DNA of 64,000 bases. It comes from a virus. The stretch lies in IMG/VR virus record IMGVR_UViG_3300014806_000004, one strand, 5' to 3'. This document shows, in pieces, positions 8,775 to 8,829 of this stretch. The notes beneath the pieces are model-generated. The model saw only the letters and a list, made by a program, of their open reading frames with translations. It was not told the DNA's origin and did no database searches. Every line of letters begins with the position of its first letter. Positions within the stretch are counted from its first letter, which is position 1. Both the position numbers and the translations under genes were made by a program.

Positions 8775-8829
8775 CCTCGTTCTGCTCCGAGTTTCCGTTC
8801 GCGCAGGCTCACCAAATTTTTCTTTCAAA
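8775..8829 (+). repeat. 55-nt GC-rich repeat, copy 1 (CCTCGTTCTGCTCCGAGTTTCCGTTCGCGCAGGCTCACCAAATTTTTCTTTCAAAA)
   Basis: 100% identical to 33244..33299; both copies follow a terminator hairpin and precede TAG-rich operons. Confidence 0.8.

Follow-up and report, generated by a model that had tools for sequence, protein, structure and literature searches.

The sequence CCTCGTTCTGCTCCGAGTTTCCGTTCGCGCAGGCTCACCAAATTTTTCTTTCAAAA, an exact 56-nt direct repeat in a ~147-kb TAG-recoded human-gut phage, stands in front of the tail-fibre operon and again in front of the operon that carries the lysis genes, and from sequence comparison we think it most likely that it gives these two operons one shared transcriptional control. 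That is, we hold with moderate confidence that the element would act in cis as a DNA module, in which a GC-rich box for recognition by a factor adjoins an A/T tract, and that it would serve both late operons as a common regulatory input. Such a module would be a fairly ordinary kind of feature, and the surprise it offers is modest. The DNA analyzed here, which we call the window, is a stretch of 64,000 nucleotides of the virus record IMGVR_UViG_3300014806_000004. All coordinates refer to it, and the two copies of the element are called c1 (at the tail-fibre operon) and c2 (at the lysis operon).

Structure of the repeat and of its two sites

The features of the two sites are listed in Table 1. 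The copies lie on the same strand, 24,469 bp apart, and an exact repeat of this kind occurred in none of 100 dinucleotide-preserving shuffles. The original prediction had described a perfect 55-nt repeat ending at 8829, with a second copy at 33244-33299. The perfect identity and the place of the second copy were confirmed, and the length and the end were each found to be one base short. No third copy with three or fewer mismatches was present in the 64-kb window, and nhmmer with a profile made from 23 natural variants returned only the two known copies from the window and no weaker one. The repeat is not an assembly artefact, since both copies were found in long contigs of independent human-gut assemblies (081499, 075249, 093451, QWCY01000074, OLFV01000432, OGNP01000003, and OGGG01000034).

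Within the element, a non-palindromic GC-rich box of about 40 bp, which consists of CTCCGAGTTTCCG, a variable pyrimidine/purine tract, and AGGCYCA, is followed by a 17-bp A/T tract. Counted by eye, 27 of the 56 nucleotides, and 25 of the 39 in the 5' part, are G or C. The GC content of the window is 31-43%, and that of the other intergenic regions is mostly 11-30%, so that the element is indeed richer in GC than its surroundings, as had been claimed. In the variants inspected, neither dyad symmetry nor a conserved inverted or direct sub-repeat was found inside the 56 nt. The intergenic region at 55458-55540 is unlike the other intergenic regions; its GC content is 39%, and it contains a long hairpin (tctgcggac...gtccgcaga) with no T tract after it.

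Table 1. Coordinates of the element, its parts, and the adjoining terminators, promoters, and operons
Feature	Position	Strand	Description
Intrinsic terminator before c1	8736..8774 (stem 8736-8764)	+	13-bp stem and T tract; ends the tRNA-Met/AAA-ATPase unit
Element, copy 1 (c1)	8775..8830	+	exact repeat; tail-fibre side
c1 core block	8785-8797	+	CTCCGAGTTTCCG
c1 variable Py/Pu tract	8798-8804	+	
c1 second block	8805-8811	+	AGGCTCA
c1 A/T tract	8814-8830	+	AAATTTTTCTTTCAAAA
Likeliest c1 core promoter (uncertain)	8851..8879	+	-35 GTGAAA 8851-8856, 17-nt spacer, TGT-TATATA 8871-8879
Tail-fibre operon	8931..13665	+	five TAG-containing genes 8931-13398 (Mtd_N, tail-fibre PHROGs), terminator 13405-13445, g13468
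Intrinsic terminator of SPFH-gene remnant, with linker	33200..33243 (stem 33200-33228)	+	13-bp stem, T tract, linker gccactag
Element, copy 2 (c2)	33244..33299	+	apparent ancestral location; orthologues in protein-anchored relatives
c2 core block	33254-33266	+	
c2 second block	33274-33280	+	
c2 A/T tract	33283-33299	+	
c2 core promoter	33309..33338	+	-35 TTGGAT 33309-33314, 18-nt spacer, extended -10 TGaTATAAT 33330-33338
c2 operon	33377..38015	+	g33377, small TM protein, PIN-PhoH, terminator 35367-35394, SPOR-type, lysozyme/amidase-like, TM protein

As originally described, both copies are placed after a terminator. The gap between each copy and the strong intrinsic terminator before it (13-bp stem) is about 10-15 nt, and the fold of the c1 region including the terminator hairpin gave a z value of -4.3. 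Each copy is followed downstream by what looks like a promoter and then by a Shine-Dalgarno sequence with its ATG (8931 and 33377). The c2 promoter (33305-33354, family D2) is a member of the TGnTATAAT family that is repeated in the window, and it alone within its family has the GC-rich box in front. The c1 core promoter was called by its likeness to the same family; a promoter scanner preferred an alternative, TTGTTA-17-GATAAT at 8870-8898, which would set the element about three helical turns further off. The putative start sites are at ~33345 (c2) and ~8886 (c1), and relative to them the element would extend from about -101 to -46 at c2 and from about -111 to -56 at c1.

In 30 distinct c2 sequences, the -10 hexamer lay 77-80 bp, most often 78 bp, from the first base of the core block. 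The linker that separates the element from the -35 region varied in sequence among them. The distance to the likeliest -10 box was 89 bp at all c1 sites, about one helical turn more than at c2, and the argument from one helical turn is soft because the assignment of the c1 core promoter is ambiguous.

The 3' 17 nt of the element matched 13 of the 14 specified positions of AAAWWTWTTTTNNNAAA, the UP-element consensus of sigma70 promoters (PMC2412878). This AT-rich DNA contains many UP-like matches (13 found vs. 6 expected), statistically the match does not stand out, and the resemblance is suggestive only. A UP element is an A/T-rich sequence at about -57 to -41 that contacts the alpha-CTD. The A/T tract resembles it in composition and, at c2, in lying just upstream of the -35 region. 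Unlike a UP element, however, the likeness covers only the last third of our element, and with the putative starts the tract lies about 4-5 bp (c2) or about 15 bp (c1) upstream of the canonical UP register. As a separate observation, a perfect DnaA box, TTATCCACA, lies between the -35 and -10 of the c2 promoter in L069, L121, L141, and L145, and other lineages have TTATCTATA at that position of the spacer.

The source phage appears, from its sequence, to read TAG as sense. The window contains a tRNA with the anticodon CTA at 14850, 21 other tRNAs, and a tmRNA; many of its long ORFs close only when TAG is read through, and all of its genes are on the plus strand. The tmRNA (4123-4438, tag DNDYFENYFAA) lies within the tRNA array. 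This array, with an AAA-ATPase gene, comes first in the window and is followed by c1, the tail-fibre operon, and further tRNAs. Next is a block almost devoid of TAG, with genes for Ro60-like, RNA ligase, NAD-salvage, Thg1-like, kinase, and phosphoesterase proteins; after it come an SPFH gene with an internal deletion, c2 with its operon, and the replication module. The DnaE protein showed no more than weak similarity to Enterococcus and SPbeta-like phages. The terminator and promoter that follow the c2 operon are at 38017-38117, and in homologous loci the Pfam families PhoH, Phage_lysozyme2, and Amidase_2 were found.

The two copies had been predicted to precede TAG-rich operons. This is correct for the tail fibres, since 16 in-frame TAG codons were counted in 8931-13398. 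It is only partly correct for the c2 operon, in which g33377 has one TAG and the PhoH gene none, while the TAG-rich lysis genes (35417-37683, 11 TAG; 2 in the SPOR-type gene and 9 in the lysozyme/amidase-like gene) sit behind the internal terminator at 35367-35394. The most TAG-rich genes of the window, a GIY-YIG endonuclease-like gene (44918-45829, 8 TAG) and a RecJ-like gene (52899-54650, 13 TAG), belong to the replication module and have no element. Thus, TAG density is not confined to the late operons. Both element-bearing operons contain a strong intrinsic terminator (13405-13445 and 35367-35394), and the gene after it has a Shine-Dalgarno sequence and no convincing promoter.

The DNA bracketed by the two copies had been described as a structural, vault, NAD, and repair block. 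It consists mostly of RNA-repair, NAD-salvage, and tRNA genes, and its structural genes are the tail fibres only. The nearly TAG-free part, 16227-32749, encodes a Ro60-like RNA-binding protein, an RNA ligase, a Thg1-like protein, a kinase/phosphoesterase pair, nicotinamide phosphoribosyltransferase, PRPP synthetase, NAD synthetase, and an 813-aa protein without a PHROG hit, and looks like an early counter-defence or repair module. The SPFH/Band_7 gene at 32900-33195 is a remnant: its N-terminal TM segment runs into the C-terminal ~66 codons in another frame, with the junction near 32995-32998, and compared with the intact gene of L008, L094, and L146 it has lost about 0.6 kb.

Two further observations concern the tRNA-Met gene. 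A hairpin directly after it (8652-8667) has the sequence CATCGTTGCAGCGGTG here and CATTGTTGCAGCAATG in the 64% relatives (L016-L026), which is a compensatory change. By analogy with the theta ribozymes that accompany tRNA-Met in recoded phages, the hairpin could be a processing element of the tRNA trailer. In L020 (IMGVR_UViG_3300013902_000140, ~2430-3300), the tRNA-Met sequence ends near the T-arm, at the start of an ORF for a GIY-YIG endonuclease, and this break could be a homing-endonuclease or intron insertion into the tRNA gene.

Conservation of the element and its apparent copying between promoters

The phage group was recovered by pattern searches and protein-anchored searches of IMG/VR and human-gut metagenomes, with contigs of up to ~148 kb. 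The repeat was found in other genomes, and always before the tail-fibre operon (c1) or a g33377 homologue (c2). No contig in the three collections scanned, whole ~147-kb contigs included, had more than two copies matching the pattern used, a pattern that diverged variants of the element would escape. Most relatives have a single copy.

The c2 element was present in all relatives with ~70% PhoH identity. It was also present upstream of the g33377 homologue in five of the six protein-anchored loci with 40-44% amino acid identity (L155 and L171-L174). In these distant loci at most 3 of the 13 positions of CTCCGAGTTTCCG were changed, and in the tract that follows the changes were mostly transitions, by which the alternating pyrimidine-purine pattern was kept. 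The identity of the whole element to that of the window was 66-82% in these loci, compared with 63-76% for the adjacent coding DNA. Taken as a whole, the element is thus conserved only to about the same degree as the coding DNA.

The genes upstream of c2 differ among the relatives (SPFH, GIY-YIG, and other genes), and so do the terminators, of which there are several types. We therefore think that c2 belongs to the downstream promoter. Terminator and promoter are directly adjacent in L158, with the element missing cleanly from between them, which indicates that the element is a discrete and dispensable module. From this distribution, the c2 element is old and apparently ancestral at the lysis operon.

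The c1 element, in contrast, was found only in the subclade of the window, that is, in the window, 081499, 080502, 091188, 093451, 075249, and several ENA contigs; the same c1 site was seen in the relatives L001-L005, L011-L015, L100, and L110. Relatives with 58-64% AAA-ATPase identity have a different GC-rich box at the tail-fibre site, which we call repB and which is single-copy in each genome. No homology of repB to the element is claimed, since the alignment score was not above that of shuffles. We think that in the subclade of the window the element has apparently been copied from the lysis-operon promoter to the tail-fibre promoter.

Where a genome has two copies, the number of differences between c1 and c2 over the 56 positions was 0, 0, 1, 1, 2, 4, 5, and 14. 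At position 7, the window/081499-type genomes have T in c1 and c2 alike, where most other variants have C; at position 24, the 075249/OGNP-type genomes have A in both, a state absent from the other variants seen. The c2 of 093451 is of the ancestral type, and this genome is 100% identical to the window in PhoH and only 83% identical in the AAA ATPase. OGGG01000034 has a 075249-type c1 together with a window-type c2. The lineage-specific states common to both copies point to repeated gene conversion between the two sites, together with recombination between phages. The perfect identity of the copies in the window would then be the latest outcome of gene conversion, and because the c2 of the window is of the c1 type, the conversion here probably ran from c1 to c2. 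In the genomes with repB (the more distant L016 clade), the two promoter regions share a different, promoter-proximal segment of ~33 nt, AATTTTTC..GGCAAA.TGATTT.

The original prediction had also raised the possibility of a recombination boundary that brackets the block between the copies. Gene conversion between the copies does seem to occur. The boundary function is not supported, because most relatives have a single copy and because recombination between the repeats would delete the tail fibres.

Proposed function and its alternatives

Of the functions first suggested for the repeat, a candidate late promoter or activator site is the one we favour. The element keeps a nearly constant distance to the sigma70-like promoters downstream of it, is conserved in distant relatives, and stays linked to the promoter. 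These features, together with its constant orientation and its restriction to two late-function operons, suggest a transcriptional control module, and so does the repeated sharing of upstream sequence between these same two promoters. The element is probably not a general late-gene signal, because it is absent from the other promoters of the window and no further pattern match occurs in the ~147-kb contigs. It was found at the tail-fibre and lysis operons only, with at most two pattern matches per contig, and the operons for the virion structural proteins (head, tail) lie outside the 64-kb window.

We speculate that a sequence-specific protein, encoded by the phage or by the host, binds the GC-rich box on one face of the helix, and that the bound protein and the A/T tract together would contact the host RNA polymerase at the sigma70-type promoter. 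This would give the two operons a timing signal that is not available to the ~14 other promoters of this family in the window. At c2, delay is no less plausible than activation, because the c2 core promoter is already strong and as good as the other members of its family.

We identified no protein that binds the element. Among the proteins encoded in the window, only the winged-helix protein g46786 (TrmB/MarR-like) is a clear candidate for DNA binding, and nothing links it to the element. The g33377 family is always encoded by the first gene after c2. The model of g33377 (pLDDT 90) has an alpha-beta-beta-beta-alpha domain and a long helical hairpin, and as regards a regulatory role, it gave no significant PDB match (best E 0.07 or worse, dsRBD/Rv1738-like). 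Paralogy of g13751 and g33377 was rejected (BLASTP E 0.29). The missing dyad symmetry of the element is unusual for dimeric activators, and it counts against a control module that the L158 lineage does without the element.

Among the alternatives, we first considered that the element is a promoter-region cassette that has been copied passively. In this case the terminator/promoter regions would simply recombine, the 56-nt identity would be a conversion tract that involves no specific factor, and the conservation would reflect frequent homogenisation and recent common ancestry. The sharp tract boundaries, the lineage-specific states in both copies, the mosaic genomes around the element (OGGG01000034 and 093451), the other shared segment in the L016 clade, and the presence of ~15 terminator-plus-TGnTATAAT cassettes in the window all agree with it. 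We nevertheless regard it as unlikely: the single-copy element of the lysis operon is kept at 40-44% amino acid identity where it has no partner for conversion, the spacing to the -10 box is constant while the linker changes, and only 2 of the ~15 promoter regions have the element.

The element might also be a promoter in its own right, used by a sigma factor or an RNA polymerase of the phage and arranged in tandem upstream of the host-type promoter as a second, late start. The promoters of single-subunit RNA polymerases have an architecture loosely like that of the element, namely a long asymmetric conserved sequence and then an A/T-rich stretch, and the orientation of the element is fixed, always toward the operon. 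The T7 promoter, however, is ~23 bp, and the box of about 40 nt is longer than phage polymerase promoters such as this one. Moreover, no RNA polymerase or sigma gene was found within the 64-kb window, only two pattern-matching copies occur per ~147-kb genome, the element by eye matches no sigma consensus known to us, and sigma70-type promoters stand ahead of nearly every operon. We consider a phage-specific promoter quite doubtful.

A site for another DNA process, such as site-specific recombination or dimer resolution, packaging (pac), or replication initiation, seems to us improbable to a high degree. Most relatives do have one conserved site per genome, and in some lineages an imperfect inverted repeat bounds an extended c2 (in L171/L172, GCTAGG..33 nt..CCTAGC). 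The shared 56-nt unit, however, lacks the left arm of that inverted repeat, the conserved promoter spacing is not required by such functions, there is no adjacent recombinase or terminase gene, and the tail-fibre genes would be lost if the direct repeats recombined. Among the loci that were recovered and classified, none joins the tRNA-Met terminator to the element and g33377, the arrangement that recombination of c1 with c2 would produce.

There is also a slender chance that the element would be the loading site of a phage factor that makes the host RNA polymerase read through intrinsic terminators, as in Q-like antitermination. Since the internal terminators are strong and no convincing promoter follows them, expression of g13468 and of the TAG-rich SPOR-type and lysozyme genes would need read-through, and antitermination would explain how g13468 and the lysis genes at 35417-37683 are placed behind these terminators. 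If it were true, the timing of lysis and of the adsorption organelle would be tied to the TAG-to-sense code switch of the phage.

A function at the RNA level on read-through transcripts, either as a C-rich, unstructured Rho-loading (rut) backup terminator that would insulate the late operon or as a small RNA or ribozyme, is very improbable indeed. In its favour, the plus strand of the 5' 39 nt is rich in C and poor in G (~16 C vs. 9 G), and the element is predicted to be unstructured and directly follows a terminator. A rut site, however, needs neither a near-invariant 13-mer nor a fixed distance to a downstream -10 box. The small RNA of the original prediction likewise was not supported. On either strand the element folded no better than shuffles (z about -0.5), RNAalifold on 18 natural variants gave no pairs and no consensus structure, a scan of the variants for conserved helices of at least 4 bp on the plus strand found none and no covariation, and Rfam gave no match to the element at gathering or at permissive E-value thresholds. 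The element follows a terminator, and no promoter that would feed it was found on either strand at either copy. The theta ribozymes of recoded gut phages form a double pseudoknot and are located beside tRNAs, no more than 5 nt away (PMC10879173). A theta or HDV-like ribozyme was rejected here, since c1 is 125 nt from tRNA-Met behind a terminator and c2 has no tRNA nearby; with no conserved helix of at least 4 bp, no covariation, and no Rfam hit, an HDV-like double pseudoknot is impossible.

Several other identities were also rejected. The overlapping ORFs 8622-8882 and 33132-33332, which had been taken as artefactual, read the element in different frames, and the natural variants differ by 1-nt indels, which indicates that the element is non-coding. 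A tRNA fragment or att site was not supported by ARAGORN or Rfam, and manual parsing of ...GGCTCACCA found no T-arm pairing. With regard to a MITE or transposon, neither terminal inverted repeats nor a target-site duplication were found at either copy or at the empty site of L158. A host-derived or CRISPR-like repeat was rejected because the element had no hit in a bacterial chromosome and nothing relevant in cultured phages. A degenerate-pattern scan of 185,579 bacterial and archaeal genomes gave a single hit, a 147.8-kb contig in an uncultured Eubacterium MAG bin, and this contig is the phage itself. None of the known motifs compared by eye with their consensi (ECF, sigma-54, SigB/D/H, SPO1 gp28, CodY, cre, and Spo0A) fitted.

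Comparison with known systems

The element is conserved and newly described, and an upstream regulatory box that is copied between promoters is a well-known kind of feature. To our knowledge, the timing of late and lytic functions in stop-codon-recoded gut phages has so far been discussed mainly as a matter of translation, via suppressor tRNAs. The element would be a conserved DNA handle on the transcriptional side, marking exactly the tail-fibre and lysis operons, in an abundant, uncultured group of ~147-kb phages of the human gut. If a factor binds it, the element would identify a regulator of lysis timing and give a portable control module, and its presence or absence and the polymorphisms of its two types among natural genomes can serve as natural experiments.

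Shared upstream sites of phage late promoters are those of phi29 p4, at PA3/PA2c, and of P2 Ogr. The p4 site lies roughly at -56 to -102, and p4 either activates a weak promoter or holds the RNA polymerase at a strong one. The position of our element is comparable to that of the p4 region. The C protein of Mu acts at a shared upstream site of the late promoters Plys, PI, PP, and Pmom, which include lysis and tail functions (PMC4461284), and RinA-type late activators are found in Gram-positive phages (PMC3152322). In all of these systems, as in ours, one conserved site is placed upstream of a few core promoters for late functions, including lysis or tail, that are used by the host sigma70-type RNA polymerase. 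Unlike these sites, our element has no inverted-repeat symmetry, its GC-rich box of ~40 bp is longer, only two operons have it, and one lineage lacks it; its function is deduced from position and conservation only.

The PeSL cassettes (promoter-early plus stem-loop) of T4-type phages (PMC2839356, PMC4122927) are also intergenic repeats at junctions of terminator and promoter that recombine between loci and accompany gene gain and loss. The element shares with them the recombination between copies, as the lineage-specific states in both copies and the combination of two types in OGGG01000034 indicate. It differs in being neither a promoter nor a stem-loop, but an extra box between the two, in having only one or two copies per genome, and in that no circles or shuffling products were seen. 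A closer analogue of PeSL is offered by the terminator-plus-TGnTATAAT cassettes (D1/D2), which are possible substrates for module shuffling. Such cassettes, of families D1-D3, occur at ~15 sites of the window (for example, 20629-20684, 21909-21964, 27558-27613, and 38062-38117) and stand at most of its operons.
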